Of a stretch of DNA of 64,000 nt, positions 17,534 through 58,840 are shown piece by piece (positions within the stretch are counted from its first letter, which is position 1; each line of letters begins with the position of its first letter). The notes under the pieces were generated by a model. The model saw only the letters and a list, made by a program, of their open reading frames with translations, was not told the origin of the DNA and did no database searches. A program made the translations under genes and the position numbers. The stretch lies in the IMG/VR virus record IMGVR_UViG_3300046616_000314, positions 286,616 to 350,615 of that record, one strand, 5' to 3'. The DNA is from a virus.

Positions 17534-19327
17534 CTAGTTCCGCCAGCGGTTCACGATGGGATAGCGACGATCCCGACCAAAAATCTTGCTTCCGATCTTA
17601 ACACCGGGAGCCGCTTGGCGACGCTTGTATTCAGCGTTATCCACAAGTTTGCGGATTTTCTGAACAACATCCAATCGAACTTCAAGTTCGACAACGATGT
17701 CAGCGACCGACAGTTCTTCTTCGATCATCGCCTTGAGGATCGAATCGAGAACCGGATAGGGCGGCAGGCTGTCTTCGTCCTTTTGATCGGGACGCAGTTC
17801 AGCCGAAGGCGGCTTCACGATGATCTCTTCGGGAACCACTTGAGTTGCCCGACCCAAGAAGCCAAATTCCGTCAGATATTTTTGCGGAATGGCATTGCGC
17901 CAGCGGCACAAGTCCCAAACCGTCGTCTTGTAGCAATCCTTGATCGGATTGAAGCCACCGCTCATGTCGCCGTAGAGGGTCGAGTAACCCACGCTGACTT
18001 CCGACTTGTTGCCGGTGGTCAGGAGGATATGACCCTCTTGGTTGGAGATCGCCATCAGGATAGTACCACGGGCACGCGCCTGGATATTTTCATCCGCAAC
18101 GCCTTCAAGCTCACGAAGACCAGCAGTCATACCCTTTTCGTACTGGGCACTGCTATAGGCAACGCGCAGCGAATTCACGACGTTCTCAATCGGGATGGTT
18201 CGCATTTGCGCACCAAGGCGATCAGCCCCGGCTTCTGCATCCGATAGCGAGTGATCCGAAGAGAATGCCGAAGGCAGGCGAACCAAGTGAACGTTCTCGG
18301 GACCGATGGCGTCACAGGCGACAGCCGCGACCAGACCGGAGTCCACCCCGCCGCTGTAGCCGAGAACCACTGACTTGAAGCCTTGCTTTAGAAGGTAGTC
18401 ACGGGTACCGAGCACGACAGCTTGATAGATTTCCTGTTCGTGTGGTGTAACGATCTTCGGATAAAGATGCAAGGGAGCCCGATTTTCCGGCGGCTTGATC
18501 CAGTGCGAGAACGAACCGTCATCGCGCACCGAGCCCACAATCGTAGTCGGAACGCCCGCGTCATTATATTCGAAATGGCGCGAACGGGTTTGCGGGTGGA
18601 ATTCGAAGGCGAACAAACCTTCTTTGAAATATGGCGCCGACTGATAGCCCTTGGCGTCGTAGTAGAACGATCCGCCGTCGAACACCAGTTCGTCTTGACC
18701 ACCGATCATGTTGACGTACAGGAACGGCAAGCCGGTTTCCTTGATGCGGTTGGCGATCACTTGGTGACGAGTGACATTCTTACCGGCTTCGAACGGTGAA
18801 CCGTTGATGCTCAGAAGGAACGTGGCGTCATTGTCCGACAGCGAACGGCTCACGCTGGGGAACCAGCAGTCTTCGCAGATCATCAGACCGATGCGTTGAC
18901 CCCGGAATTCGATGGGAAACGGTTCGGCGGTATTTGCTTCGAACACGCGCTTTTCATCGAACACACCGTAGTTCGGTAGTTCGGTCTTGTGGATCAGATC
19001 GACCTTCTTGAGAACCGGATCGATCAAGTACGCACTGTTGCGCGGTTTGACGTTGCCCTTCGTCGGCGTGCCGAAGATGATCCCGGCGTCCATGAAGCCG
19101 CCGCCCATGACAGCATCAATGATGCGTTGGTTGGCGCGTTCAACCGCGTCCATGAACGAATGGCGCGACACCAAGTCTTCGATGGGATAGCCGGTCACGG
19201 CGCACTCTGGGAAGACGACCAGATCAAAGCCCGATTTTGCGGCGTTCTCGTATTGGGCAATGATTTGATCCGCGTTGCCGACGATATCACCGACGACCGG
19301 GTTAAATTGAATGACAGCAATTCTCAT
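17534..19327 (-). CDS. nadE: glutamine-dependent NAD+ synthetase (nitrilase domain + NAD synthetase PP-loop domain)
   Basis: N-terminal CN-hydrolase signature (MRIAVIQFNPVVGD...LVVFPECAVTGYPIEDL...GLMICEDCWFP). C-terminal PP-loop (VVLGYSGGVDSGLVAAV). 597 aa is typical for Gln-dependent NadE; GAGGAA RBS. Confidence 0.85.
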   Translation of the reverse strand: MRIAVIQFNPVVGDIVGNADQIIAQYENAAKSGFDLVVFPECAVTGYPIEDLVSRHSFMDAVERANQRIIDAVMGGGFMDAGIIFGTPTKGNVKPRNSAYLIDPVLKKVDLIHKTELPNYGVFDEKRVFEANTAEPFPIEFRGQRIGLMICEDCWFPSVSRSLSDNDATFLLSINGSPFEAGKNVTRHQVIANRIKETGLPFLYVNMIGGQDELVFDGGSFYYDAKGYQSAPYFKEGLFAFEFHPQTRSRHFEYNDAGVPTTIVGSVRDDGSFSHWIKPPENRAPLHLYPKIVTPHEQEIYQAVVLGTRDYLLKQGFKSVVLGYSGGVDSGLVAAVACDAIGPENVHLVRLPSAFSSDHSLSDAEAGADRLGAQMRTIPIENVVNSLRVAYSSAQYEKGMTAGLRELEGVADENIQARARGTILMAISNQEGHILLTTGNKSEVSVGYSTLYGDMSGGFNPIKDCYKTTVWDLCRWRNAIPQKYLTEFGFLGRATQVVPEEIIVKPPSAELRPDQKDEDSLPPYPVLDSILKAMIEEELSVADIVVELEVRLDVVQKIRKLVDNAEYKRRQAAPGVKIGSKIFGRDRRYPIVNRWRN

Positions 19328-19329
19328 TT

Positions 19330-19671
19330 TTATTCCTCAATATCAACGGGAGTGATATGCCAAACCGAACGGCTCTGGGGTTTCACTCCGGTACGCATGG
19401 CGTCCATCACTTGACTGATATTACTGATTCCGCCAGTAATTTCAACAAAGCCAACGCCGACGATGTTTAGGGCAAGCGCATCCGCACCCGCCGTGATGTT
19501 TTGAACCTTGTCATTCTTAAGAATGATTTCAGTACAATCGACCAAGTTCTTGATGTTCTTGATCGCTTTCACGTGTCCAATTTTCAGAGCCACCTTGGCT
19601 GCATCATCTTCATTGTGGGCGAAGATGCTGCAACCAGAGTTGGCAGAATTGGTGATGCGGTAGATACGCAT
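19330..19671 (-). CDS. hypothetical protein within the NAD operon
   Basis: 113 aa ORF packed tightly between pncA and nadE. Confidence 0.45.
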   Translation of the reverse strand: MRIYRITNSANSGCSIFAHNEDDAAKVALKIGHVKAIKNIKNLVDCTEIILKNDKVQNITAGADALALNIVGVGFVEITGGISNISQVMDAMRTGVKPQSRSVWHITPVDIEE

Positions 19672-20316
19672 TTAGTCCTCGTGCGGATAGGCGTGAGCGA
19701 AGGTCAGGTTTTCGTTACCCGGAAACTCTTCCAAGATAACTTGCTGCATGTCGCGCACGATGCCCTTGGTCAGGTCAGCCATGACGATCACCTTGAAGCC
19801 ACGCTTCAGGAAACCTTCAATCGCCCAAAAGACGCAGAAGTCGGCAGCAAAACCGGTGATGATGATCGTATCGACGCCTTGCGCCTTCAGATCGGCGAAG
19901 AATTCATCGCGATCATAGTACGAGTTGGTCAGCGCGAGACGCAGATCGCGCAGATACAACTTGTCTTCTTCCCACATATTGAAGACGCCCTTTTCCAGGG
20001 CATAGACCGGGATGGCGAAATTGATCAACGCCGGATTGATGACGTTCTCCCAACCGGGTGTGCCCTTTTCACAGTGCAGATTGAAGCCTGGGGCGCCCAC
20101 TTCCGGGTTGCCGAGATTTTCCGGCGAGCCGATGAAGGTTTCTTCGGTGTGCGTATCGAAGGTGTTCAGAACACCCGCGATTTCGTCAGGGTTCAAGCTG
20201 GCGTTCCAACGCAGCAGCTTGGAAACCACGGCTTCAGCACCTTCCACCGGCAGGGCAAAGCCCTTGAAGATGAAATCGGCTTGGGTATCAACGTTGACCA
20301 CAAATTTGTTTTTCAT
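19672..20316 (-). CDS. pncA: nicotinamidase / isochorismatase-family cysteine hydrolase (PncA-like)
   Basis: VNVDTQADF (the VDxQNDF motif), ...IITGFAADFCVFWAIEGFLKRGFKVIV (catalytic Cys in the GxxxxxCV context), ~214 aa. Confidence 0.65.
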   Translation of the reverse strand: MKNKFVVNVDTQADFIFKGFALPVEGAEAVVSKLLRWNASLNPDEIAGVLNTFDTHTEETFIGSPENLGNPEVGAPGFNLHCEKGTPGWENVINPALINFAIPVYALEKGVFNMWEEDKLYLRDLRLALTNSYYDRDEFFADLKAQGVDTIIITGFAADFCVFWAIEGFLKRGFKVIVMADLTKGIVRDMQQVILEEFPGNENLTFAHAYPHED

Positions 20317-20328
20317 AATATTTTTTCC

Positions 20329-21663
20329 TTAAACCAGAACCGGAGCACCATCGAGACCTTCGATCCCGAACAGTGCGCGGTAGCGGTCCACTTCAGAGGC
20401 GGGACCAGTTGCCTTGTTATAGTTGTCCGACATCTTCACGGCAGGACGCCCATCGGCATCCTTGATCTTGGCAACAACCGAGATCGAACCCATGTAGTCG
20501 TCAGCTTCGCCAGGGACGCAGCCATAGAAATCGTTCGACAGGTTGGTACCCCAACCAAAGCCCATGCGGACCTTGCCACGGAAGTAGGCTTCGATTTCCA
20601 AGATGTCTTCACCGTGGGTGTCGTAGCCATCGATCTTGACATCAAGACCGTCGCTGAAAATAATCAGCTTTTCTTGCGGGTTCTCGCCGTGCGTCTTCCA
20701 ATATTTGATCAGTTCGTCACCGCCAGGAATCGGCTTCTTGGAGTCGGGGCGAGCACCCGTCCACTGAGAAACCCATTGCGGGGCATTCTCAAGGAACTGG
20801 GTCGTGCCGAACGTGTCGGGCAGGAAGACCAGCAGTCCGCCGCGATATTGCGCCGCCCACTTCAGGAGCACCTTGTATTGTGCATCCTTCAGTTCGGCAT
20901 CGTCTTGCGCCAGAGCCGCCAGGGTCATCGGTAGTTCATGGGCGTTCGTGCCCTTGGCTTCCAAACCATGCTTCATGGCGAGATATGCGTTCGACGTACC
21001 GGTGAAGCGGTCGCCAAGAACTTCCTTCGCCAGCAGCATGGCGTATTCTTGCCAAAGGAAGCTATGGCGACGGCGAGTGGCGAAGTCCGTCAGGTTCAGG
21101 TCTTCGACAGTCGCCAGCTTTTCGAGCTTGGCGTACAGCTTCGCCTTGGCGCGGGCATACATGATGTCGATTTGGGTAGCCGTCAGCTTTGACATCCGCG
21201 AACGAGCAAGAAGCTCATTGATGATGGTCAGTGCGTAGATTTCCCAAAGCGTCACTTCGGTCCAAGTGCCGTGGAATTCGAGGATGTATTGACCGGTTTC
21301 TTCGTCAACTTCCAATGAATATTCCGGCAGTTGGAACGTCTTCAGATATTCGATATAGCCCGGCTTGAACAGTCGGTCTTGACCGTAGAAGGTGTTTCCC
21401 TTGAGCCAGTGAATCTCGTTCGGCTGGAAACGCAGCGTGCGAGCATGGTCGAGTTGCGCGCGGAGTTGCTTGATATTGATGTTCCGCGCGAGCTTCACTC
21501 GCTTGGTACGATTGGTGACGGCGAACGTCACCTTCGTATTGAAGAAATCTTCACGGATAAGCTGTTGCATCAGCAGCTTATAAAAATCGATGTCCAGCAG
21601 CGACCGAACGATGGGGTCGATGTCGTAAAGAAGGGCGTCTTTGGCGCGTTTTGCAAAATCCAT
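20329..21663 (-). CDS. pncB: nicotinate phosphoribosyltransferase
   Basis: Aligns by eye to E. coli PncB: DIDFYKLLMQQ/DTDAYKLHMQQ, LWEIYALTIINE/LWEVPLLAVISE, FATRRRHS/FGTRRRFS, GTSN, GTNAHE/GTQAHE, KMSDNYNKATG/KLSDSPGKTIC. Confidence 0.8.
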   Translation of the reverse strand: MDFAKRAKDALLYDIDPIVRSLLDIDFYKLLMQQLIREDFFNTKVTFAVTNRTKRVKLARNINIKQLRAQLDHARTLRFQPNEIHWLKGNTFYGQDRLFKPGYIEYLKTFQLPEYSLEVDEETGQYILEFHGTWTEVTLWEIYALTIINELLARSRMSKLTATQIDIMYARAKAKLYAKLEKLATVEDLNLTDFATRRRHSFLWQEYAMLLAKEVLGDRFTGTSNAYLAMKHGLEAKGTNAHELPMTLAALAQDDAELKDAQYKVLLKWAAQYRGGLLVFLPDTFGTTQFLENAPQWVSQWTGARPDSKKPIPGGDELIKYWKTHGENPQEKLIIFSDGLDVKIDGYDTHGEDILEIEAYFRGKVRMGFGWGTNLSNDFYGCVPGEADDYMGSISVVAKIKDADGRPAVKMSDNYNKATGPASEVDRYRALFGIEGLDGAPVLV

Positions 21664-21668
21664 AATAA

Positions 21669-22760
21669 TTAAACTTTCTTAATCAGAGCTTCGGAGTCGC
21701 TGATCATCTTCCAATGATCTTCGAAATATTCGTAACGCGGAATGGTATCCGGGTCCTTCCAAACGGCGCGCTTGGCGTCCGACGCCGCGCGAACCTTCGG
21801 ATACGCCAGGGCTTCGCGAACCTTGGTGATATCGGTCACGCCCGGCGGAATCTTCGGAGTCAGATTGATGAAGGTGGTGTGGCTGACGGTGCGCTTGCGA
21901 GTCGAGCGATTGGGATCATCGTAGGTTTTTTCGCCGATGATGCTGTTGCGTAGAGTTTCGCGAGCGACCTTCAGACGGGTCTCTTCGTACAGTTCCTTGA
22001 TCGCAGCGTCCGCAGCCGTTTGATTTTCGCAGTGACCACCGGGGACCGCCCACAGACCCTTACCGGGGAAGCCGCCGCGCTGGACCAAAAGAACCTTGCG
22101 CGCTTGGCGAACGACCGAATCCGCCGTGTAGAAAATCGGCGGATAGGGAGCACTGTCCCATTGCCCCAGATAGTTTTGCATGAACACCTTCTCGGCAAGA
22201 AGGCTTTCAAGATATTCGGGGGTTTGACGGAATTCTTGAAGGAAGGCGATCACGCCTGGGGCGAGATATTCAGTCGCTTCGCCGTTCAGGAATTCCGAGA
22301 CGAGGCGTTGATCTTCGACAATATATTTGTCGCGCGCATAGGTCGCGTTGATCCCACGGAAGTTGGGGACTTCGACGCTTTCCCAATCGGGGAACTGCGA
22401 CAGATAATAGCCGGTGGGTTGATCTTTCTTGTGACCGACAAGGGCGGTGGGATCATCTTGAACGATATCCCGCGTGGCATCATGCACGGCGGCTTGCCAT
22501 TGCGAAATGTTGCCATAGTCCATGACGTTGACGAACTTGACCCGACGCAGTTGTTCGGGAGGCAGCATACGCCGCCACATTTCTTCACGTTCAAATTCTC
22601 GGAAGGGAACATGGTCCCATCGCCGTGCGGCGAAAGAAGAACCGTTGACGACAACTAGTTCTTCGCATTCTTGTAGCCCGGCTGCAACTACGGCGCCGTG
22701 AGCTAGTGTTACTGGTTGACCGCGAACAACGGTCACACCGTGACGATAACGATACTTCAA
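21669..22760 (-). CDS. nadM: bifunctional NMN/NaMN adenylyltransferase - Nudix hydrolase (NadM-Nudix type)
   Basis: N-terminal nucleotidyltransferase region (VVRGQPVTLAHGAVV, GQP..xHxGH-like). C-terminal Nudix box GGHCENQTAADAAIKELYEETRL (Gx5Ex7[RK]ELxEEx). The architecture matches NadM-Nudix and phage NatV. Confidence 0.65.
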   Translation of the reverse strand: MKYRYRHGVTVVRGQPVTLAHGAVVAAGLQECEELVVVNGSSFAARRWDHVPFREFEREEMWRRMLPPEQLRRVKFVNVMDYGNISQWQAAVHDATRDIVQDDPTALVGHKKDQPTGYYLSQFPDWESVEVPNFRGINATYARDKYIVEDQRLVSEFLNGEATEYLAPGVIAFLQEFRQTPEYLESLLAEKVFMQNYLGQWDSAPYPPIFYTADSVVRQARKVLLVQRGGFPGKGLWAVPGGHCENQTAADAAIKELYEETRLKVARETLRNSIIGEKTYDDPNRSTRKRTVSHTTFINLTPKIPPGVTDITKVREALAYPKVRAASDAKRAVWKDPDTIPRYEYFEDHWKMISDSEALIKKV

Positions 22761-32572: not shown

Positions 32573-32938
32573 GTGTATACTTCCGAAATTACTATGCGGA
32601 GATTTGTTATGCCCGAATTTCGAGCCAGCGATATCAGGACCACGAATTATTCTCACGCTTTCCAAGCGTCGATGTTCGCTGACAAAACCGAATGGACGAA
32701 AGCCAAGAGTGGCAAGGATTTCGCTCGAAAGTTTTTCGAAAAGAATCCCGATCTTTTGGAAGACCCTCGGACGTGGCAAGCCGGTCTCGGCGTCCAATTC
32801 GAAGAAGGTAAGTGGTCCTATTACCACCCTGGCGAATTCGGCTATATGATGCCCGACACGATTCGGGCTACGTTCTCGCCAGAAGTTTTGGCGGCGATGC
32901 AAAAGCTTCAGGACTTCGGTCAACCGCATGGTCTCTAA
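32573..32938 (+). CDS. hypothetical protein
   Basis: 121 aa ORF. Confidence 0.45.
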   Translation: MYTSEITMRRFVMPEFRASDIRTTNYSHAFQASMFADKTEWTKAKSGKDFARKFFEKNPDLLEDPRTWQAGLGVQFEEGKWSYYHPGEFGYMMPDTIRATFSPEVLAAMQKLQDFGQPHGL

Positions 32939-33944
32939 ACTCCTAACGCGCGAGCAATTCAGCGAGCAAGTGATTGGTCGTGCGAAGGGGAAGTGCGTCT
33001 TTTGTGGTGATCCGGCTACCGAAGCTCATCACATTATGGATCGCAAATTATTTAAGGATGGCGGATACTATCTCGATAACGGCGCGGCTGTCTGTAATAC
33101 CTGCCATATGAAATGCGAAGACAACACATTCACAGTTGAAGAAGTCAGAAAAGCGGCGGGTATTACTGAAGTAATTCTTCCACTTGACTTTGACCCCGAC
33201 TTACTATACGATAAGTGGGGTAATATCACACTTAGTGACGGAACAAGGGTCAAGGGACCGTTGTTTGAGGACACTGCGGTCCAAAAACTTTTGAAGAGGG
33301 AGCTTCGCATGTATGAACATCTTGTAAAGTATTCCTCGACTCCGCATCTGCCTCAGTCGCGGACGCGCACGGAAGACGACAAGGTTCTCAAGACCATCGA
33401 ACATCTGTTGAAGTTCAATGGTGTTGCGACTGAAAAAATGGATGGCGAGAATGCCTCGCTGTACAACCATCACTATCACGCACGGTCGCTTGATAGTCGT
33501 CACCACGTGTCGCGTGATTGGATCAAGTCGTTCTGGGCAACCATCAAGGAAGACATTCCGGTGGGTTGGCGCGTGTGCGGCGAAAATCTGTTCGCAGAGC
33601 ATTCCATTGGTTACAACGACCTTCCGAGCTATTTCCTCGGATTTTCGGTGTGGACCGACAAGAACGAATGTTTGGGCTGGGATGATAGCCTGGAATGGTT
33701 CGACCTTCTGGGCGTCACTCCGGTCCCGGTGCTGTATCGCGGTCCTATCTCTGAACAAGTCATCATGGACTTGATCAAGGGTATCGACATCACGGTTCAA
33801 GAGGGTTTCGTCCTTCGTAACGAAGGTTCGTTCCACTACGACGATTTTGCTTCTAATGTTGCCAAGTGGGTGCGTCCTAAGCACGTGCAAACGGACCAAC
33901 ATTGGATGGCGAAGGATGTCGTGCCCAACGGGCTTAGGAAGTAA
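32928..33944 (+). CDS. HNH nuclease - RNA ligase (Rnl2-like nucleotidyltransferase) fusion protein
   Basis: N-terminal HNH (CVFCGDPATEAHHIMDRKLFKDGGYYLDNGAAVCNTCH). C-terminal ligase motifs I EKMDGEN (KxDG), III/IV WRVCGENLFAEH and EGFVLRNE, V AKWVRPKH. Confidence 0.6.
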   Translation: MVSKLLTREQFSEQVIGRAKGKCVFCGDPATEAHHIMDRKLFKDGGYYLDNGAAVCNTCHMKCEDNTFTVEEVRKAAGITEVILPLDFDPDLLYDKWGNITLSDGTRVKGPLFEDTAVQKLLKRELRMYEHLVKYSSTPHLPQSRTRTEDDKVLKTIEHLLKFNGVATEKMDGENASLYNHHYHARSLDSRHHVSRDWIKSFWATIKEDIPVGWRVCGENLFAEHSIGYNDLPSYFLGFSVWTDKNECLGWDDSLEWFDLLGVTPVPVLYRGPISEQVIMDLIKGIDITVQEGFVLRNEGSFHYDDFASNVAKWVRPKHVQTDQHWMAKDVVPNGLRK

Positions 33945-33945
33945 G

Positions 33946-34923
33946 ATGCGTGCAGTAATTTTTGACATTGATGGCACGCTAGCGAACTGCGATCACCGGT
34001 TGCACTATCTAGACAATGGTCGCAACTGGGATGGCTTCTTCGGTGATATGCATCTGGACACGCCGATTGAGGCGGTGGCTTGGCTTGCCCAATTCATCGC
34101 CTCAAACGCGCGTGCTGGCGCCTTTGACACCGATATGAAGGGCATCATGCGCGACGACCACGTTGCCGTGCTCGTTGTCACCGCGCGCCCCGATGACAAG
34201 GATTATCGCGCCGTCACTGAAAAGTGGCTGGCTGACCATGACATCGTGTACGATAAAATTTACATGCGTGCCGGTGGAGACTATCGCCCTGACCAAATCG
34301 TCAAGGGCGAAATCCTTCAGCAAATCCTTGAAGATGGCTACGATCCCTTCTTGGTGGTCGATGACCGTCCGCAAGTGGTGGATATGTGGCGTAGCTTCGG
34401 CATCACCACGTTCCAATGTGCGGCTGATGAGAGCAAGCGTTGCCGCCCCGAAGATCAAGGCAAGCTGCTTCTGACGATGCTGGTTGGTCCCGCGTGTGCG
34501 GGTAAGAGCACCTATTGCAAGAAACACTTCAAGGCGGATGACATCATTTCGACTGATGACATTCGGGTGCAACTGTACGGGGATCGTTCAAAAGGGCATA
34601 ATCCCGATGAGCTTGCGCGCACGTGGAAGTATGCTCACTCGCTGATCAAGGCACGGTTGGAGAATGGCGTATACACGGTTCTGGACGCCACGAACCTCAA
34701 GAAGAAAGATCGCCTCAAGGTTCTGGAATCGGTTCCTTCGGGCGTGTTGGTCGAGTACGTTGTGTTGGATCGCGATTATGATACGAAGATCGCGGAACGC
34801 GGTGTGCGCTCTGTTGAACTGATTGATAAACACCATAAAACGTTTAAAAGCCAAATCAAAGAAATCCTGAATGCAGACGGGATGGGCTTTGTGATGGTGA
34901 AGGACGCGAGAGAAAAGAAATGA
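33946..34923 (+). CDS. pnkp: polynucleotide kinase-phosphatase (N-terminal HAD 3'-phosphatase, C-terminal P-loop 5'-kinase)
   Basis: HAD motifs VIFDIDGTL (DxDGT), VLVVTARPD, K...VVDDRPQ, then Walker A LLTMLVGPACAGKST. Start taken at ATG 33946, immediately after the upstream stop. Confidence 0.7.
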   Translation: MRAVIFDIDGTLANCDHRLHYLDNGRNWDGFFGDMHLDTPIEAVAWLAQFIASNARAGAFDTDMKGIMRDDHVAVLVVTARPDDKDYRAVTEKWLADHDIVYDKIYMRAGGDYRPDQIVKGEILQQILEDGYDPFLVVDDRPQVVDMWRSFGITTFQCAADESKRCRPEDQGKLLLTMLVGPACAGKSTYCKKHFKADDIISTDDIRVQLYGDRSKGHNPDELARTWKYAHSLIKARLENGVYTVLDATNLKKKDRLKVLESVPSGVLVEYVVLDRDYDTKIAERGVRSVELIDKHHKTFKSQIKEILNADGMGFVMVKDAREKK

Positions 34924-35237
34924 AATATTATGCGTTGCCACTAAACGGAGAGTATGACACCCGACTGTCTTACGACCAATCGGGTTTGCAATCCGTTGAG
35001 TGGCGAGATTATGCGGGTCAGTTCACACTTGAACTGACTTTGACTGAATTTTTGAATCAATATCAAAGCATTGCTGGTTGGATGGACCGTAATGGTTTCA
35101 CCGATGCTGACTTTGATGCGATTCTAGAAGTGTCCGAGAACAACCGGAGCGAAACTTGCGTTCTGGTCGCCTTCTTGGATTCGGATCAACGTATGCTGTT
35201 CAAGATGAAGTACGGCGGCAATTTTTGGATGACTTAA
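34920..35237 (+). CDS. small protein of the F[KR][LM]K[YW]GG family
   Basis: Ends ...DSDQRMLFKMKYGGNFWMT. Confidence 0.5.
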   Translation: MKYYALPLNGEYDTRLSYDQSGLQSVEWRDYAGQFTLELTLTEFLNQYQSIAGWMDRNGFTDADFDAILEVSENNRSETCVLVAFLDSDQRMLFKMKYGGNFWMT

Positions 35238-35594
35238 ATGCTATTTGATGAAGCTACGGCAAACAAAATTTGTGATCTTCTGATGCCCCTGGTCGATAAC
35301 GAACACGGCATGGGCGTGCTGCAAAAGGGTTTGGGGTTCACCGTGACCCCCGAATTCCTTGAAGCCATGATGCAAGCTGACAGCTTTTGCTCTGGCTTTG
35401 TTCTATCGAGCATTGTTCCGCGTGAGCAAGCCGAAGAAGTATATAACGAGAATCTTCGTTTGAGCCTTGAAAAGGCTGATGACGAACACAACTCGACATA
35501 TGGTCCAAATACCCCGGCTCATATCGTCATGGCGCAAATCAAAGAGCGTCATAAGGACAAGTATCCCAACATGAAGTGGGGCGACGAAGATTAG
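35238..35594 (+). CDS. hypothetical protein
   Basis: 118 aa ORF. Confidence 0.45.
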   Translation: MLFDEATANKICDLLMPLVDNEHGMGVLQKGLGFTVTPEFLEAMMQADSFCSGFVLSSIVPREQAEEVYNENLRLSLEKADDEHNSTYGPNTPAHIVMAQIKERHKDKYPNMKWGDED

Positions 35595-36438: not shown

Positions 36439-37131
36439 ATGGTTGATATTCTTTTCCTTGCTAGAGAGTGGGCGTCGATTCATCGCGCCGAAGAAATCCG
36501 TCCGAGTTGGATGGAATTCTTCAGAATTTTGTGGGCATATTCAAGCAAGGGTCGTTTCTATCACACCCTTAAGCATCTAGAGCATGGCTTGCGCTTTATT
36601 GCGAACAACCATGCCAATGCCCGCGCAGTTCACATTGCCAAACTGGCATATTTTTATCATGACATCGTGTACAACGCCACGCGCGAGGATCACACGAACG
36701 AAGAAGATAGCGCAGAGGCGTTCATCGCCTATACACGCGCCGTTGGGTTCTCTTCGGATACCATCACGCATGGTGTCGCTCTGATTTACGCGACGAAGAA
36801 TCATTTCGCAGATCATTTCTCCAATCGTGCGGATGGCGGCTATTTGATTCAGTCGCTTTGGGCAATCATGAGCGACGCTGACCTGTGTATCCTGGCGTCA
36901 AACGAAGAAACCTATCTGGGCTATGCCACCAAAATTTGGCATGAGTATAAGATCGTTGGCGAAGAAAAATATATCGAAGGTCGCCTAAATTTCCTTCGCA
37001 AGGTCGCGGATAACAACGTCAAAATTTTCAAGACGCCTAAGATGATTGAGCATTTCGAACAGAAAGCTCACATGAATCTGGTGAATGAAATTTCACGCCT
37101 GACCGTGATCCCACATTCAATCATCAAATGA
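36439..37131 (+). CDS. HD-domain metal-dependent phosphohydrolase (predicted)
   Basis: FYHTLKHLEHGLRF ... AYFYHDIVYN (H...HD motif spacing). Confidence 0.45.
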   Translation: MVDILFLAREWASIHRAEEIRPSWMEFFRILWAYSSKGRFYHTLKHLEHGLRFIANNHANARAVHIAKLAYFYHDIVYNATREDHTNEEDSAEAFIAYTRAVGFSSDTITHGVALIYATKNHFADHFSNRADGGYLIQSLWAIMSDADLCILASNEETYLGYATKIWHEYKIVGEEKYIEGRLNFLRKVADNNVKIFKTPKMIEHFEQKAHMNLVNEISRLTVIPHSIIK

Positions 37132-38509: not shown

Positions 38510-39208
38510 ATGGGTGATGAAGATGAACTGCCCGGCGTATATACTACATATAATTTTGAACTAAAATTAATTCGCTGTCTTGAAAACATGCTGGTTCCAA
38601 CCACGCTAAAGGTCGCGGCTGAATTCATTGCTATAGAAGATGCCGATGAGGACGATATTGATTTCGCCTTCACCAAAATTCGCTATTGGCTGGATTACGT
38701 TGTTTCCAAGAGCGTTGTTTTCTCACACGACAATTCGTCCGCAATCGAAATGTTTATTGACGAATCCACCAATTCTCGGCTGGGTAACGTCATGGTGCTA
38801 ACGCCCGAAGAACCGGACGATCAGCATCTTGCGGCAATCCTCCAAGCCAAGCTTACGGCACTGGCGGGCGGTAGTCTGATTTTTGGTCCGATGGAACTGA
38901 CATCGGATAACATCGTCGGCTTGACGTTTACGTTCATTGGCGATTCGAGTGCCGTTCTTCCGTCTAACGAAGAGTGGGCTGGTACACGAACCTATTTCGA
39001 TGAACCTTGGTGGAACCGCGATGATGGTTCGACCCTGGACGTGCTTCCACCGGAAGATGCCGATCTGAGCATCAAGCCTAGCTGGGCGTTCAATTTCGAT
39101 TTCCTAAAGAAAAATCGACAGAACCCGACCAAGGCTGGTATGATCGTCAGACCTGAATTTAAGCCGACCGTCATCACGGGTGGCAAGACCGAAGATAAAG
39201 ATGATTGA
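38510..39208 (+). CDS. hypothetical protein
   Basis: 232 aa, acidic. Confidence 0.5.
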   Translation: MGDEDELPGVYTTYNFELKLIRCLENMLVPTTLKVAAEFIAIEDADEDDIDFAFTKIRYWLDYVVSKSVVFSHDNSSAIEMFIDESTNSRLGNVMVLTPEEPDDQHLAAILQAKLTALAGGSLIFGPMELTSDNIVGLTFTFIGDSSAVLPSNEEWAGTRTYFDEPWWNRDDGSTLDVLPPEDADLSIKPSWAFNFDFLKKNRQNPTKAGMIVRPEFKPTVITGGKTEDKDD

Positions 39209-39734
39209 TAACGTAACACGCAAGGTCGATGCTTGGGGTCGAATTATTGTCGATTCCAGTGCTCTTGTTGATCTCATTTACGATGGCGTCGATATCACTA
39301 CTCTTCTCGTTGAGAGTAATGAAGAGACTGCTGCGTTCAATGATCTATGCAAGAAATTCGACAAAGCGGATAGCGTTCTCAGAACACCGGAACCGCTGGA
39401 CATTGATCCAGCGGATTTCCACGCCGAAAAATCGTCTACATGGGCTATATCCAAGGATATACAGGAACTAGACGTTCGGTCGCTATTGCTGTCTCTGTGC
39501 TCATCTGAGACGGCTACAGCACGTGTTAATATGGAAATGGATATGTTTGAAGAAAGAGGTTTGATCCCCTTGCTTCAACTCATGGTCTATCTGGTTGACC
39601 ATTTCAGACAGAATAAAATCGTGTGGGGCGTCGGGCGCGGTAGTTCGGTTTCGAGCTATTGCCTGTATCTGATCGGCGTCCACAAAATCGACAGCATCCA
39701 ATACGACTTGGATATCAACGATTTCTTGAAGTAG
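39180..39734 (+). CDS. hypothetical protein
   Basis: 184 aa ORF. Confidence 0.45.
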   Translation: MARPKIKMIDNVTRKVDAWGRIIVDSSALVDLIYDGVDITTLLVESNEETAAFNDLCKKFDKADSVLRTPEPLDIDPADFHAEKSSTWAISKDIQELDVRSLLLSLCSSETATARVNMEMDMFEERGLIPLLQLMVYLVDHFRQNKIVWGVGRGSSVSSYCLYLIGVHKIDSIQYDLDINDFLK

Positions 39735-42015: not shown

Positions 42016-42951
42016 ATGAGCGTTGAACTCTGGGTGGAAAAATACCGCCCGAATACCCTTGACGAATTCGTCTGGAAAGATACCGCGCAGCGCAAAACAG
42101 CCGAAGAATGGATCAAGCAAGGCGCCTTCCCGCACCTGATGTTCTCGGGTGTCCAGGGTTCGGGTAAGACCAGCCTTGCCAAACTTCTGCTAAAGATGCT
42201 GAACATCCCTCGGGGTGACATCTTGGAAATCAACGCTAGTCGTGAACGTCAAGTTGACGTTATCCAAGATCGCATCGTTAATTTCGTTCAGACTTGGGCT
42301 CTTGGTCCGACTGGTATTAAGTACATTATTCTTGACGAAGCTGACAGCATGAGCCAATTGGCTCAACGTGTTCTTCGCGGGGAAATGGAAAAGTATCACG
42401 ATATGTGCCGGTTTATTTTGACCTGCAACTATCCTGAACGTATCATTCCGGCTATTCACTCGCGTTGCCAGGGCTACCGTTTCGGTTCTCTGGACTCCGA
42501 TGAATTCACGGCTCGGGTGGGTGAAATTCTCGTCACGGAAAACGTCAATTTCGAAGTTGACGACCTTCTGGTGTACGTGGAAAAGACCTATCCCGACCTA
42601 CGGAAGTGTATCAACCTTGCTCAACAACATTCGTCGTCGGGTACGCTCGCGCCGCTTGAAGCTGATGAGGAAGGTACAAAGGATTACCTAGTTGATATGG
42701 TCAATCTGTTCAACTCGGGTAAGTTCTTGGAAGCTCGTAAGCTTGTTGTCGGTCAGGCGCAAGTCGAAGAGTATCCCGAAATCTTCAAGTTCATGTATCG
42801 TAACCTGAACTTGTGGGGTGCTACCGAAGACAAGCAGGATGAGGCTTTGCTTATCATCCGGCGCGGTCTGGTAAATCACGCGGTAGTAGCGGACTTTGAA
42901 ATCAATCTGGCGGCGACGCTGGCTGAACTTTCGCGTCTGGCAAAATCGTAG
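42016..42951 (+). CDS. gp44: sliding-clamp loader large subunit (gp44 / RFC small-subunit homolog)
   Basis: WVEKYRPNTLDEFV (the RFC box), Walker A GVQGSGKTS, DEAD-like ILDEADSM, sensor ILTCNYPERIIPAIHSRC. Confidence 0.85.
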   Translation: MSVELWVEKYRPNTLDEFVWKDTAQRKTAEEWIKQGAFPHLMFSGVQGSGKTSLAKLLLKMLNIPRGDILEINASRERQVDVIQDRIVNFVQTWALGPTGIKYIILDEADSMSQLAQRVLRGEMEKYHDMCRFILTCNYPERIIPAIHSRCQGYRFGSLDSDEFTARVGEILVTENVNFEVDDLLVYVEKTYPDLRKCINLAQQHSSSGTLAPLEADEEGTKDYLVDMVNLFNSGKFLEARKLVVGQAQVEEYPEIFKFMYRNLNLWGATEDKQDEALLIIRRGLVNHAVVADFEINLAATLAELSRLAKS

Positions 42952-45816: not shown

Positions 45817-46638
45817 GTGAGCGGTTTTAACAAACTCAAAATGGAGGCTGAAGTGGCAAGACACCTCGCCAGAAATGCAAAACGGTCTAACAAGCCCAAC
45901 CCTCGGGAAGAACGCAACTCACCCGAATATTCTCGTTCTAAGCAACGAGGCGCCAACGTCATCGACTTTGATCACGGCAAAACTCAAACCAAAATTAAGC
46001 GTGTAGAACTTACACCGCGTAACCTAGCCCAAGAAGACTACGTTGATGCTCTCGAAAACGATAGCAAGTCAGTAGTTTTCGCAATGGGTCCAGCCGGTTG
46101 CGGTAAGACTTTGCTGGCAACACAGTATGCCATCAAGTGCTTGCAAGAAGGTTTGATTTCCAAAATCGTCATTACTCGTCCAGCCGTCTCGGTTGACGAA
46201 GAACACGGCTTCCTCCCCGGCGATCTTATCGCCAAGATGACGCCCTGGATGATGCCGATTTTGGACGTGTTCAAGGAACATTATTCGAAAGATCAAGTCT
46301 TGAAGATGTTCACTGATGAAGTAGTCGAAATCGCTCCCCTCGCGTATATGCGCGGTCGCACATTCAAAAACGCAATCATCATTGCCGACGAAATGCAAAA
46401 TTCGCAAGTCAGCCAAATGAAGATGGTTCTCACCCGTATCGGTGAAAACAGTCGTATGATCGTAACTGGTGACTTGAACCAGCATGATCGCGGTTTCAAG
46501 ATCAATGGTCTTGGTGATTTTGTTGAACGTCTAGAAAAGCGTGGAAGCAAGGCGATTTCCGTCATTCGCTTCGATGCACACGACGTTGAACGTCACCCGA
46601 TCATTGAAGAAATTCTTGATATCTATGGTGATGACTAA
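45817..46638 (+). CDS. phoH: PhoH-like ATPase
   Basis: Walker A AMGPAGCGKTLLA and the PhoH core ITRPAVSVDEEHGFLPGDLIAKMTPWMMPI...IIADEMQN...MIVTGDLNQHD. GTG start at 45817; the alternative is ATG 45841. Confidence 0.85.
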   Translation: MSGFNKLKMEAEVARHLARNAKRSNKPNPREERNSPEYSRSKQRGANVIDFDHGKTQTKIKRVELTPRNLAQEDYVDALENDSKSVVFAMGPAGCGKTLLATQYAIKCLQEGLISKIVITRPAVSVDEEHGFLPGDLIAKMTPWMMPILDVFKEHYSKDQVLKMFTDEVVEIAPLAYMRGRTFKNAIIIADEMQNSQVSQMKMVLTRIGENSRMIVTGDLNQHDRGFKINGLGDFVERLEKRGSKAISVIRFDAHDVERHPIIEEILDIYGDD

Positions 46639-53418: not shown

Positions 53419-55197
53419 TTACATCGGACCCGCGCCACCACCCGGCGGGGGTGCAGCATCAGGAGCCCCACCAGGGACGCCACCACCTTCAGGGGGTGCA
53501 TCGCCGTCCAGTGCTGCTTCGTCTCCCGGTGGCAGTTCCATGTCATCACCCGGCGGGCGAATACCAACGGCGCCAAGATCGCCATCAGGTTCGCTTTCAG
53601 CAGCCGTTGTACCGGTTGCCTTACGAACCTTGTCGGGATTCTCTTCCTTCCACAGACGCTCGTTTTCCACCATTTCGTCTTCAGAGAGGTTCAAGAAGCG
53701 GGTCAGCTTAAAGCGTTCCGACAGTTTCTTGATCCCTTGAACACCGGCATAGACTTGCGTTTGTTGTAGGTCGAGTTCGATCTGACGATATTTAGTGAAG
53801 TTTTGGGGAGGATTAAATCGTAATTCAAATAGGCTTTGTTCGATTTCAATGCCGTTTTCCTTCAAGTAATACTTGAAGTCTTCATCGAATTTATTAGCAA
53901 GCAAAGCTTGTTGGCGCATACAATACTTGTTGAAACGGAATTCTTGAATAACCGCTGCACCAAGCTTGCCGTCATTATATGACACGCCTTGACCTTCATC
54001 GTCACCGATAGCCAGATACGAAGAAGGAATACGCAGACCGCGCGCCATCTTACGGCTGAAATAGCTCAAGTCGCCAATGTCACCGAGCGAATCGCCGCCC
54101 GGCAAGGTTTCGACCTTTGAGCCACGACCATCAGCCGATTGAGCAAAGTAATAGTCTTCAAGAATACCCAGAGGATTATAAGCAGCATCCATGATCGAAG
54201 ACCCGCCGCCAGTGCGGTTAGGAATACGACGTTGGTGGATTTCGTTCTTGATTTGCTCAATGTGCGACTTGGCACGAACCGGAGGCATGTTACCAACGTC
54301 AATATAGAACACGCGACGTTCGGGAGCGCGCTGAACGCGATAGATGATGATCGAATCTTCAAGCAATTCTTTTTGCTTATACGTCTTGAAGATGGGTTCA
54401 AGGATAGATTTGCCGAAGGGCCAATTGGCGTCCATGCCAACTGACAAGGAAAGGTGAACAACGTGCTTGGCTTCGATGACGCTCATTTCAACAAGCGAGT
54501 TGCCACCCTGCATGGTACGGGGATCGCGGTTTTGTCCTGCCATTTGGAAGTTCGATGAACTGGTTGTGCCACCGCCGCCAACTGGACGGCTGTTCGGAAT
54601 CAGCGAGGTACCGAACGGGGTACGATACTGAGTGGGGTCAGCAGTCTTAGTGGCAAACTTGCCTTGGAGGTTCAGGTCTAGACCACGAACGATATACTCA
54701 TCCGGCTTCTTACCTTGGGTTTCGTCAACCTTGACCATTTCAACAGCGAAGTGGTCAATCCAGAGCCATTCACCCGTTTCGGGGTCACGCAAGAAGAACT
54801 GATCGCCGTTCTTCATGGTTTGGCGGAAGATATGCCACAGGCGGCTCTTGAAATCGTTGAGCTTTACCCATTTTGTCAAGTAACTCTTGATGAGAGTTAC
54901 TTCAGTTTCATTGGCTTCTTCGGTATAAAGAATATCAAACGGTTCTTCATTCTGTTCTTCAGATTGTGTACAGAAGTCAGCAATAGTGTCCAGCGCAGCA
55001 TTAATATCGCTATCGCGGTCCATGTCTTCGTATTGATAGTAACGCTGAATACGGTTAGGGTGTCCAGCGTAGACTTCCGGCAGATAGCTTGCGTATTTCG
55101 CAGAAGCAGAAGCCCCCGCACTATAGCCAGTATTGCCGCCACTAATAGGAGTGGTTGCTACCGGATTTACGACTACAAAGTGTTTTTTCCAAGACAT
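53419..55197 (-). CDS. gp20: portal vertex protein (gp20 family)
   Basis: NRIQRYYQYEDMDRDSDINAALDTIADFCTQSEE matches the conserved gp20 N-terminal block (QR...Y..FDEMD...EI..ALDI.A.F.TQ); 592 aa with a Pro/Gly-rich C-terminal extension. Confidence 0.85.
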   Translation of the reverse strand: MSWKKHFVVVNPVATTPISGGNTGYSAGASASAKYASYLPEVYAGHPNRIQRYYQYEDMDRDSDINAALDTIADFCTQSEEQNEEPFDILYTEEANETEVTLIKSYLTKWVKLNDFKSRLWHIFRQTMKNGDQFFLRDPETGEWLWIDHFAVEMVKVDETQGKKPDEYIVRGLDLNLQGKFATKTADPTQYRTPFGTSLIPNSRPVGGGGTTSSSNFQMAGQNRDPRTMQGGNSLVEMSVIEAKHVVHLSLSVGMDANWPFGKSILEPIFKTYKQKELLEDSIIIYRVQRAPERRVFYIDVGNMPPVRAKSHIEQIKNEIHQRRIPNRTGGGSSIMDAAYNPLGILEDYYFAQSADGRGSKVETLPGGDSLGDIGDLSYFSRKMARGLRIPSSYLAIGDDEGQGVSYNDGKLGAAVIQEFRFNKYCMRQQALLANKFDEDFKYYLKENGIEIEQSLFELRFNPPQNFTKYRQIELDLQQTQVYAGVQGIKKLSERFKLTRFLNLSEDEMVENERLWKEENPDKVRKATGTTAAESEPDGDLGAVGIRPPGDDMELPPGDEAALDGDAPPEGGGVPGGAPDAAPPPGGGAGPM

Positions 55198-57946: not shown

Positions 57947-58840
57947 ATGAGCGATGCGTTTGATGATTTTGATGAATCTGCAATGTTTTCACCAGCAGCG
58001 GTTTCGGGCAATCCTCTAGCCAAGTATTTCCGTCAGCCGGGCTTGCATATTGATTTGCCGACGCGCGGTGCATTCTTGCGCCCCGAACAATATAATCCGA
58101 CGATGGCAGGACAAATCCCGGTCTTGCCCATGCGCGCGGCTGACGAACTATTGCTGTCGTCCCCAGATGCATTGATGAGTGGCTATGCCATTGAAAAGTT
58201 GTTGGAATCATGTGTCCCAGACATCAAGGCGCCGCGCGCGATCTCTACGCCAGACCTAGACGTGATCTTGCTGGCTATTCGTGCTGCGACCTACGGTAAC
58301 ACCATGGAAATCCAGGCACGTTGCCCCAAGTGCGGTCACAATCATGAAATGGACTGTGATCTTGGTGGAATGCTGGCAGGCATGGTTCACATTGAATTGG
58401 AAGACGGTCTAGTTCGACTATCCGACGAAATTCTAGTGTATACGAAGCCGTTTGACATGGAAATCGGCACTCGAATTGCCATGGTTGCTTATGATGTCAA
58501 CCGCATGATTCAAGAGATCGAAGAAGATACACCCGAGGCAGAGCGTTCGCAAATTCGAAACGCTGCACACAAGCGTCTGACCGATCTATCGGTTCGGTCG
58601 CTGGCGGAATCGATTACTAAGGTTGTTGTGCCGAACAACACCGTGACCAAGACATCCGACATTGCTGAATTCTTGTCGAACATCCCGAAGCCTTGGTTTG
58701 AAAAGATTGAAAAGACCGTGGATAGCATGAATTCCAAGGGTCTCGACAAGGGCGTCAACGTCCAGTGCGAAGCTTGCCAGCACGAGTGGAAGTCGGACGT
58801 GGAGTTTGACCCTTCTAGTTTTTTCGCCAAGGGCTCTTGA
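57947..58840 (+). CDS. hypothetical protein with split CxxC...CxxC zinc ribbon
   Basis: CPKCGHNHE...CEACQHEW; 297 aa. Confidence 0.5.
   Translation: MSDAFDDFDESAMFSPAAVSGNPLAKYFRQPGLHIDLPTRGAFLRPEQYNPTMAGQIPVLPMRAADELLLSSPDALMSGYAIEKLLESCVPDIKAPRAISTPDLDVILLAIRAATYGNTMEIQARCPKCGHNHEMDCDLGGMLAGMVHIELEDGLVRLSDEILVYTKPFDMEIGTRIAMVAYDVNRMIQEIEEDTPEAERSQIRNAAHKRLTDLSVRSLAESITKVVVPNNTVTKTSDIAEFLSNIPKPWFEKIEKTVDSMNSKGLDKGVNVQCEACQHEWKSDVEFDPSSFFAKGS

Follow-up and report, generated by a model that had tools for sequence, protein, structure and literature searches.

A probable RNA repair cassette in a large phage: an HNH-module RNA ligase fusion abutting a phosphatase-kinase of reversed domain order

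Introduction

Do two abutting genes of a phage of roughly 561 kb, one encoding a ligase fused to an HNH module and the other a polynucleotide phosphatase-kinase, together mend broken RNA, and if so, what is a nuclease-like module doing in the same polypeptide as the ligase? Systems that cleave tRNA or other RNA are recognised as one of the major classes of defence against phages, for which RNA repair by the phage is the obvious counter-measure. In bacteriophage T4, Pnkp acts with Rnl1 or Rnl2 to repair tRNA against the PrrC anticodon nuclease. The HNH-Rnl2 fusion ligases of jumbo phages were reportedly treated by Burroughs and Aravind in 2016. In jumbo phages, according to Iyer et al. 2021 (PMC7824862), an ATP-dependent RNA ligase goes together with polynucleotide kinase and HAD phosphatase to repair tRNA; HNH-Rnl2 fusions are described in the same work. 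Comparative genomics has already put both the architecture and its interpretation on record, and the present finding overturns nothing; the window, by which we mean the whole stretch of 64,000 nucleotides that was analysed, offers a clean example, with a ligase and an end-healing kit in two abutting genes that probably form a phage RNA heal-then-seal cassette.

Gene organization

ORF calling in the window places genes A and B (Table 1) inside a run of same-strand genes, each abutting or overlapping the next, and the stop codon of gene A is separated from the start codon of gene B by a single base (TAA-G-ATG), leaving the two translationally abutted. Gene A is likewise called on contig L005. 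The phage is represented in metagenomes only, as a 561,116-bp JGI contig and in Logan run SRR26076614, and a nucleotide search with the region returned no match among cultured phages. The small ORFs nearby (32573-32938, 34920-35237, 35238-35594 and others) have no Pfam or PHROG assignment. The window contains a single tRNA gene; the connection that the first-pass annotation had suggested between the cassette and a tRNA-Gly(UCC) gene 4 kb upstream is unsupported.

Table 1. Coordinates, in the window, of the two genes, their domains and a possible accessory gene
Feature	Positions	Strand	Basis
Gene A, HNH-module / Rnl2-like RNA ligase fusion, 338 aa	32928..33944	+	ORF, phrog_24030, PF09414, PF01844
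HNH (beta-beta-alpha-metal) subdomain, residues about 8-66	32949..33125	+	zinc ligands and catalytic residues
Middle subdomain of N-module, residues 67-132, motifs YDKWGN, GPLF, VQK	33126..33323	+	conservation
Nucleotidyltransferase (ligase) domain, residues 133-338	33324..33941	+	motifs I, III, IIIa, IV, V
Motif I KxDG, K170 the predicted adenylylated lysine	33435..33446	+	K170, D172, G173, E174 invariant
Gene B, polynucleotide 3'-phosphatase / 5'-kinase, reversed domain order, 325 aa	33946..34923	+	PF25109, PF13671
HAD 3'-phosphatase domain, residues 1-160, D7-x-D9-G-T11, K120, D139-D140	33946..34425	+	profile and invariant residues
P-loop 5'-kinase domain, residues 172-325	34459..34920	+	profile and invariant residues
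HD-superfamily phosphohydrolase, possible accessory gene, 230 aa	36439..37131	+	1.5 kb downstream of gene B

The ligase domain of gene A

Profile searches confirm the HNH-nuclease/RNA-ligase fusion followed by a domain-swapped Pnkp that had been proposed for this locus (PF01844, PF09414, PF25109, PF13671). Gene A matches phrog_24030, 'RNA ligase', over its full length (E 4e-124) and PF09414 with an E-value of 3.9e-28, and its homologues form 5747 protein clusters, the metagenomic ones numbering in the thousands. The ligase motifs are I (K170-M-D-G), III (E219-N220), IIIa (G238-F239), IV (E292-G-x-V-x-R297) and V (K313-x-V-R316), and the residues K170, D172, G173, E174, E219, N220, G238, F239, E292, G293, R297, K313 and R316 are invariant in 36-40 ligase homologues. 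The same full-length architecture, at 47-51% identity, is found in Salicola phage SCTP-2 (gp101), Ralstonia phage RsoM2USA (RsoM2USA_242), Caulobacter phage CcrSC (gp219) and Acinetobacter phage ME3 (gp200). The fusion of a breaker and a sealer, which had been remarked on as odd, is real but not new, having been described before (PMC7824862) and being covered by the full-length phrog_24030 match.

The family of the ligase was assigned through predicted structure, because searches of PDB sequences with a single sequence or a profile returned only the HNH domain of IscB and an insignificant match (E 1.3) to the Rnl5 ligase NgrRnl. In a fold comparison of the AlphaFold2 model (pLDDT 89, pTM 0.77), the closest solved fold to the ligase domain is the nucleotidyltransferase domain of Rnl2. 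Gene A ends at K338, 22 residues past motif V, however, so that the C-terminal alpha-helical domain of Rnl2 is missing, and the model shows no extra domain in its place; the label 'Rnl2-type' that the ligase had been given is valid for the nucleotidyltransferase domain only. T4 Rnl2 requires its C-terminal accessory domain to seal nicks. As compared to T4 Rnl1 and Rnl2, gene A is not Rnl1-like, and in place of the Rnl2 C-terminal domain it possesses an N-terminal HNH module. It also differs from the Rnl5 ligases of Deinococcus (DraRnl) and Naegleria (NgrRnl), whose N-terminal module is OB-like (PF21189), whereas that of gene A scores as HNH and not as PF21189.

The phosphatase-kinase of gene B

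As the first-pass annotation had it, an HAD phosphatase domain (PF25109, E 1.1e-28; matched over residues 2-160) lies N-terminal to a P-loop kinase domain (PF13671; residues 176-321) in gene B, the reverse of the order in T4 Pnk. Both PHROG matches, phrog_505 and phrog_415, are named 'polynucleotide kinase'. With family profiles, the HAD domain matches the phosphatases of Pnkp1 (4xrp, E 8.6e-28) and T4 Pnk (1ltq, E 1.6e-19), and the kinase domain matches the kinase of CthPnkp (E 6.7e-17); the kinase segment also matches TIGR04075, the bacterial Pnkp kinase segment (E 4.4e-15), and resembles the bacterial CthPnkp type more than it does T4 Pnk. The kinase residues are G181-x4-G-K187-S, D204-x-x-R207, D247-A-T-N250, R276 and R288. 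Among 37 Pnkp homologues, D7, D9, T11, K120, D139, D140, G181-x4-GK187S and D204-D-I-R207 are invariant, the last corresponding to a DxxR acceptor motif common to RNA-repair Pnks (PMC3902929). In neither the ligase nor the Pnkp family does any catalytic residue vary. Homologues of gene B fall into at least 346 clusters, and the HAD-then-kinase architecture is found in all of the best 120.

Among cultured phages, the only proteins in the collection with the full-length HAD-then-kinase order are those of Caulobacter phages (Bertelyvirus), annotated as '3'-phosphatase, 5'-polynucleotide kinase' and 32-34% identical to gene B in 11 records. The HNH-ligase fusion is present in these phages as well, but about 150 kb from the phosphatase-kinase gene, whereas the two genes abut in the window. 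Apparent reversed-order matches in T4-like Enterobacter and Klebsiella phages were rejected: the Pnk there has the usual kinase-then-phosphatase order, and the alignment runs on beyond its end.

The likeness to eukaryotic PNKP that had been noted holds for domain order but not for sequence: no mammalian PNKP chain appears at E<=1 with a single sequence or the family profile, while the profile finds T4 Pnk, Pnkp1 and CthPnkp. The FHA domain of PNKP is absent, gene B opening instead at the DxDxT motif (residue 7). The further remark that this is also the baculovirus order is unsupported; Martins and Shuman are said to have reported in 2004 that the baculovirus enzyme runs ligase-kinase-phosphatase, that is, in the T4 order.

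The phosphatase-then-kinase order is nevertheless that of mammalian PNKP, established as a DNA repair enzyme, and since T4 Pnk and CthPnkp, like the mammalian enzyme, also accept DNA ends, RNA is no more than the probable substrate here. The cassette might accordingly mend DNA, with Pnkp resetting 3'-OH and 5'-phosphate ends at nicks or breaks, the ligase sealing them and the HNH module nicking or trimming DNA or, in a variant of the same idea, with nicks being made and then resealed in the phage's own DNA. The kinase of CthPnkp takes both DNA and RNA 5'-OH ends (PMC2190708), and all solved HNH structures matched by gene A are those of DNases (IscB, McrA, GVE2 and Cas9). We regard DNA repair as quite improbable; the joint RNA-repair module, whose activities are predicted, is supported by profile, structure-prediction and gene-neighbourhood evidence.

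Gene neighbourhoods

In about 25 of the 30 loci examined, the homologue with the HAD-then-kinase order has an RNA ligase gene as its neighbour. A Rnl2-like PF09414 ligase lies directly 5' of Pnkp in related phages (L014/L022, L015, L016, L023) and in six of six Sphingomonadaceae chromosomes (L017, L098-L102), a Rnl1-type PF09511 ligase lies directly 3' of it in 14 viral contigs, and a Rnl5-type ligase matching PF21189 lies 3' of it in L030 only. Thus, across phages and bacteria, a single end-healing family is combined with three families of RNA ligase. In the profile scan of contigs, a broad Pnkp alignment picked up generic P-loop patterns and gave no confirmed match, and a narrower alignment was used.

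The Sphingomonadaceae operon is an orthologous two-gene unit in the same order, with a Pnkp 52-54% identical to gene B and a ligase domain about 46% identical to that of gene A (examples are Sphingosinicella sp. BN140058, CP035501, and Sphingomonas parva, S. zeicaulis and S. oligophenolica). Its ligase differs in being about 230 aa long, chromosomal and without the HNH module, and the two ORFs overlap in Sphingosinicella. The same layout is known from Runella slithyformis, where the ORF that comes directly after the ligase ORF, or overlaps it, encodes a phosphoesterase domain with a 5'-OH kinase domain C-terminal to it (Munir & Shuman 2017; PMC6097658). The Runella ligase/HD-Pnk cluster and the window share this layout and differ in that Runella possesses an HD rather than an HAD phosphoesterase, a ligase of another family and no HNH module.

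These neighbourhoods support a joint function of ligase and Pnkp, and strongly so when seen from the Pnkp side. Seen from the side of the HNH-ligase, most genes have no adjoining Pnkp, including those of SCTP-2, RsoM2USA, ME3 and CcrSC and of the contigs of P0003 and P0012, which implies that the fusion functions even with no healing enzyme next to it. The window, with its two abutting genes, differs in this respect from the cultured phages that carry HNH-Rnl2 fusions.

Proposed pathway

In the heal-then-seal pathway that we favour, an RNA, most plausibly tRNA or another RNA of translation, would be cut by a ribonuclease of the host or of a competitor to give a 2',3'-cyclic or 3'-phosphate and a 5'-OH, and we infer that repair of such breaks serves counter-defence. 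The HAD domain of gene B would strip the 3' phosphate, D7 acting as the nucleophile and D9 as the acid/base, and its P-loop domain would move the gamma-phosphate of an NTP onto the 5'-OH by means of K187, R207 and D204, the last serving as the general base. The ligase of gene A would then adenylylate itself at K170, pass the AMP to the 5'-phosphate and join this end to the 3'-OH. In the literature, we found no biochemical activity reported for any member of the ligase or Pnkp family.

The HNH module

The classical heal-and-seal pathway has no obvious place for the intact HNH active site of gene A. The HNH subdomain has a Cys zinc site (C23, C26, C56 and C59) and catalytic residues (H35, N51 and H60) on a beta-beta-alpha fold, and these residues are intact. 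It is followed by a middle subdomain with no match in Pfam, in which K96, W97, G98, G105, G110, F113 and Q119 are invariant and which accompanies the HNH part wherever the N-module is a separate gene. Conservation is higher in the N-module than in the ligase domain (67% as compared to 58% all-pairs identity), and the module is found as an N-terminal fusion, as in the window, as a C-terminal fusion (P0362) and as a separate adjacent gene (L016, L014/L022, L023). Ten N-module homologues checked for domains have no catalytic partner besides this ligase. Since the module occurs with the ligase only, and does so in three arrangements, the two probably share a substrate or form a complex.

Two other ideas about the module were rejected. 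Proteins of ~700 aa that carry the N-module and looked like HNH-ligase-Pnkp triple fusions are HNH-ligases with an intein (Hint and LAGLIDADG) in the ligase domain. Nor do a split N-module and ligase stem from a single gene that a group I intron or a sequencing frameshift has divided: there are no Rfam matches, and the spacers are of unequal length (54, 272 and 434 nt), the one in L014 carrying a small ORF of its own. In L014, moreover, a promoter-like site and a ribosome-binding site precede the ligase gene.

It is also conceivable that the HNH module is independent of repair, either as an offensive DNase directed against host or competing phage DNA, a role proposed by Iyer et al. 2021 (PMC7824862), or as a selfish homing endonuclease fused by chance. 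The locus does draw mobile endonucleases: the ligase domains of P0242, P0246 and P0334 contain LAGLIDADG inteins, in L015 a GIY-YIG gene separates the ligase gene from that of Pnkp, in L103 the N-module is followed by a LAGLIDADG gene, and a free-standing HNH gene adjoins the CcrSC ligase. Unlike homing endonucleases, however, which are fast-evolving and sporadic, the module is better conserved than the ligase over its 132 aa, the non-HNH half included, and its fidelity to that one catalytic partner across the three arrangements likewise makes independence unlikely. Sequence comparison points instead to a partner that is dedicated to this clade of ligases, can be separated from the ligase and is probably dispensable for ligase chemistry.

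For such a partner, the most likely roles would be to bind or position the substrate in place of the missing Rnl2 C-terminal domain or Rnl5 N-terminal domain, to trim unligatable ends to 3'-OH and 5'-phosphate in a metal-dependent manner, or both. A stronger version, which we hold to be rather unlikely, makes the N-module an active end-resetting nuclease that would trim damaged or blocked RNA termini to 3'-OH and 5'-phosphate beside the ligase site, for repair independent of Pnkp or for programmed cutting and rejoining. Were it true, the N-module would be a new kind of RNA-repair component, and RNA would for the first time be the physiological substrate of an HNH enzyme. The module is present in thousands of environmental proteins, and its candidate roles extend from binding domain to end-trimming nuclease to weapon.

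Highly improbable, in our estimation, is a splicing- or editing-like program in which the HNH module would cut the phage's own RNA and the ligase rejoin it, with Pnkp as an occasional helper. HNH chemistry does yield 3'-OH and 5'-phosphate, exactly the ends that an ATP-dependent ligase needs, and the many HNH-ligase genes without a Pnkp neighbour would be explained by an HNH module that leaves ligase-ready ends. Rfam scans, however, gave no candidate RNA substrate or intron, no RNase is found among the solved HNH enzymes matched, and the bacterial ligase-only form is still paired with Pnkp.

A possible accessory gene

JGI annotates the HD-like protein encoded downstream of the probable heal-then-seal cassette as 'predicted metal-dependent HD superfamily phosphohydrolase'. 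The protein matches phrog_19425, 'phosphohydrolase' (E 1.2e-25), with a conserved H..H / HD / H / D pattern; its structure prediction, at pLDDT 56, is too low for a fold search. A tie between this gene and the ligase and Pnkp genes is only suggestive. Homologues of the HD-like gene lie 3' of the Pnkp gene in related phages as well, at a distance of 107 nt in L014/L022 and of 2 kb in L016.

Gene pair and genomic setting

Gene A, a fusion of an HNH module with an Rnl2-like RNA ligase, and gene B, encoding a polynucleotide kinase-phosphatase (Pnkp), lie on the same strand exactly where the first-pass annotation located an RNA-repair module, and all of the motifs that it quoted are present at the expected positions. 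A mechanical ORF list began gene B at TTG 33847, but the real start is ATG 33946, 1 base past the TAA stop of gene A; the identical two genes have been called independently on this DNA in a public assembly. Because the start of gene A is overlapped 11 nt by the upstream gene and the stop of gene B is overlapped by the downstream gene (ATGA), the pair sits within a tightly packed run of genes on the + strand. The source of the window is a 561,116-bp metagenomic contig that matches no cultured phage at the nucleotide level, and its T4-like portal, baseplate, PhoH and clamp-loader-like AAA proteins identify it as a very large T4-related myovirus.

Location of features in the window and in loci with homologues (L-numbers)
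Feature	Location	Strand	Remark
HNH endonuclease	3796-4722	+	308 aa
ART-PolyVal ADP-ribosyltransferase domain protein	6963-8162	+	
NAD+ salvage/synthesis cluster	17534-22760	-	
Glutamine-dependent NAD synthase	17534-19327	-	
Nicotinate phosphoribosyltransferase	20329-21663	-	
Bifunctional NMN adenylyltransferase (NMNAT)/Nudix protein	21669-22760	-	
Gene A	32928-33944	+	338 aa
Gene B	33946-34923	+	325 aa; ATG start
HD-superfamily phosphohydrolase (phrog_19425)	36439-37131	+	1.5 kb downstream of gene B
Small ORF	39180-39734	+	184 aa
Clamp-loader-like AAA protein	42016-42951	+	
PhoH	45817-46638	+	
T4-like portal (gp20)	53419-55197	-	
T4-type baseplate protein	57947-58840	+	
HD phosphohydrolase homologue	L014 10715-11353		
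HD phosphohydrolase homologue	L016 8972-9640		
Separate module and ligase genes	L016 4760-5877		54-nt spacer
Separate module and ligase genes	L014 7791-9375 (= L022)		272-nt spacer
Separate module and ligase genes	L023 1658-3230		434-nt spacer
GIY-YIG gene	L015 4771-5565		
LAGLIDADG-like gene	L103 851-1501		
Synthetase core protein	L021 6903-8054		517-kb viral contig
Stand-alone HNH module and neighbours	L104 4001-5782		module 133 aa
Short module-like ORF	L008/L009/L010 5749-5949		

Elsewhere in the window, an NAD+ salvage cluster probably serves to counter defences that deplete NAD; Salicola phage SCTP-2 also carries an NMNAT/Nudix gene near its HNH-ligase. The small ORF, which matches only part of the DNA polymerase III alpha NTPase domain (PF07733, E 1e-9) and is syntenic in L015 and L016, may represent a split or fragmented polymerase gene.

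Domains and conserved residues

In Pfam, gene A residues 166-315 match RNA_ligase (PF09414, E 3.9e-28) and residues 23-62 match HNH (PF01844) at E 6.5e-4, slightly below the curated cut-off, and in PHROGs the 'RNA ligase' family phrog_24030 covers the protein end-to-end (E 4e-124), with numerous HNH families matching its N-terminus. Alignment of 36-40 homologues reveals an invariant HNH set (C23, C26, H34, H35, N51, C56, H60 and E64, with Cys or His at position 59), an invariant second block (K96, W97, G98, G110, F113 and Q119) and invariant ligase motifs (K170-x-D-G-E, E219-N220, G238-F239, E292-G-x-V-x-R297 and K313-x-V-R316). Against the PDB, the family profile finds the IscB HNH domain (E 0.0017), and its best ligase by sequence is an insignificant match to NgrRnl. 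Gene A ends 22 residues past motif V and thus is without the Rnl2 C-terminal domain. Its plan resembles that of Rnl5, an accessory N-module followed by a nucleotidyltransferase domain, although the Rnl5 N-module is OB-like whereas that of gene A is HNH-based.

Gene B consists of HAD_PNKP (residues 2-160, PF25109, E 1.1e-28) followed C-terminally by AAA_33 (residues 176-280, E 9.5e-17), the reverse of the order in T4 Pnk. Invariant residues of the phosphatase (D7-x-D9-x-T11, K120, D139-D140) and kinase (G181-x4-G-K187-S, D204-x-x-R207, DATN and two downstream arginines) correspond to those that active enzymes would be expected to possess; DxxR is a motif common to RNA-repair polynucleotide kinases (PMC3902929). 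Among solved proteins, the family profile matches the phosphatase domains of Capnocytophaga Pnkp1 (E 8.6e-28) and T4 Pnk (E 1.6e-19) and the kinase domain of Clostridium thermocellum Pnkp (E 6.7e-17), with mammalian PNKP absent at E<=1. The likeness to eukaryotic PNKP drawn in the first-pass annotation therefore holds for phosphatase-then-kinase order but not for kinship, and gene B is a permutation of phage/bacterial-type domains. In cultured phages this order is found over the full length only in Caulobacter Bertelyviruses (11 records, 32-34% identity), where it is already annotated; what looked like a match in T4-like phages proved to be alignment run-through. The architecture is common in metagenomes.

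Probable partnership of ligase and Pnkp

Viewed from the ligase side, adjacency to Pnkp is not general, as HNH-ligases lack a Pnkp neighbour in Salicola phage SCTP-2, Ralstonia phage RsoM2USA, Acinetobacter phage ME3, Caulobacter phage CcrSC and two large metagenomic contigs. When Pnkp is taken as the starting point, the association is strong. An Rnl2-like ligase lies immediately upstream of Pnkp in related phages (L014/L022, L015, L016 and L023), and in all six of six Sphingomonadaceae chromosomes a ligase-only version (~230 aa) overlaps the start of the Pnkp gene. For a more distant Pnkp branch, the gene immediately downstream encodes an Rnl1-type ligase in 14 viral contigs and an Rnl5-type ligase in 1. 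Only L018, L021, L048 and two Caulobacter phage loci have no ligase in the flanks examined around Pnkp. Such pairing of a single healing enzyme family with RNA ligases of three families is the hallmark of heal-and-seal cooperation. Runella slithyformis LIG/HD-Pnk is documented to be arranged in the same way, its ligase ORF abutting an ORF for a phosphoesterase followed by a kinase (PMC6097658).

These neighbourhoods, together with the domain matches and invariant residues, confirm the identification of a ligase gene and a Pnkp gene and support their reading as an RNA-repair module. The four accompanying side remarks, on PNKP kinship, a tRNA-Gly link, the baculovirus order and how odd the fusion is, are unsupported or only superficially true. 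The sole RNA gene in the window is tRNA-Gly(UCC), and nothing ties it to the cassette. For jumbo phages, Iyer et al. 2021 (PMC7824862), citing Burroughs & Aravind 2016, state both the HNH-Rnl2 fusion and the pairing of ATP-dependent RNA ligases with HAD phosphatases and polynucleotide kinases; the fusion also constitutes a PHROG family, annotated 'RNA ligase' in RefSeq phages. We found no biochemical study of the HNH-ligase or reversed Pnkp family in the literature.

In three phages, that of the window and two related ones, an HD phosphohydrolase gene lies 0.1-2 kb downstream of Pnkp. The protein, described as a COG-type 'predicted metal-dependent HD phosphohydrolase' and yielding a poor-quality structure model, could act as an additional end-healing phosphoesterase, which would make it a third healing component with a loose attachment to the cassette. 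In L021, Pnkp is followed by a class II aminoacyl-tRNA synthetase core protein (PheRS-alpha-like, PF01409, E 2.8e-31), with no ligase; this neighbour provides a further connection with tRNA.

The HNH module

With gene A residues 1-132 as query, 615 relatives were found among 1.84 billion representative proteins, 322 of them at E<=1e-10, and they form three length groups: stand-alone modules (~130-150 aa), fusions with ligase (~340-360 aa), and fusions with an intein (Hint + LAGLIDADG) inside the ligase domain (~700 aa). In one protein, P0362, the module is at the C-terminus of the ligase, and in other loci module and ligase are separate neighbouring genes. No intron was detected between the split genes; the L014 spacer holds another small ORF, and the ligase there is preceded by a promoter-like site and a ribosome-binding site. 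These arrangements are fission, fusion and permutation of one module-ligase pair. Stand-alone modules retain both the DKWGN block and the HNH residues, and among the fusion proteins conservation is higher in the HNH part than in the ligase domain (67% vs 58% all-pairs identity). These sequence comparisons mark the module as a partner dedicated to this ligase clade and separable from it, not as a passing homing endonuclease.

Bacterial ligase-only forms show that ligase chemistry does not depend on the module. We favour a role in binding or positioning the substrate, on the model of the DraRnl N-module (PMC1807946), and/or in trimming ends to 3'-OH/5'-phosphate; an offensive DNase role has been suggested by Iyer et al. 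2021 (PMC7824862). The window's pair is a compact example that invites functional tests of the conserved HNH module.

In L104, a stand-alone module lies near PTH2, EF-Ts and an RlaP nucleotidyltransferase, of the RNA-ligase-associated Pol-beta family, with no ligase of the gene A family within 4 kb. Slightly upstream of the HNH-ligase of L009 (a 218,697-bp JGI metagenomic contig; longest recorded contig for its HNH-ligase protein cluster, 523,572 bp) and of the same locus on Logan contigs L008 (99-kb) and L010 (160-kb), a short ORF carries a second copy of the module's first ~39 residues (HMM positions 1-39, E 2e-14) and looks like a leftover of partial duplication or recombination.

Mobile elements at the ligase locus

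The module-ligase locus attracts homing-type elements. Mobile elements target it in the homologues P0242, P0246, P0334 (~700 aa) and P0363, and LAGLIDADG inteins sit in the ligase domain shortly past motif I. In L015 the ligase and Pnkp genes are separated by a GIY-YIG gene, in L103 the stand-alone module is followed by a LAGLIDADG-like gene, and a free HNH gene is present at the ligase locus of CcrSC. The window also contains a second HNH endonuclease gene (PF01844, E 9e-8), unrelated to the gene A module, that probably encodes a free-standing homing endonuclease.
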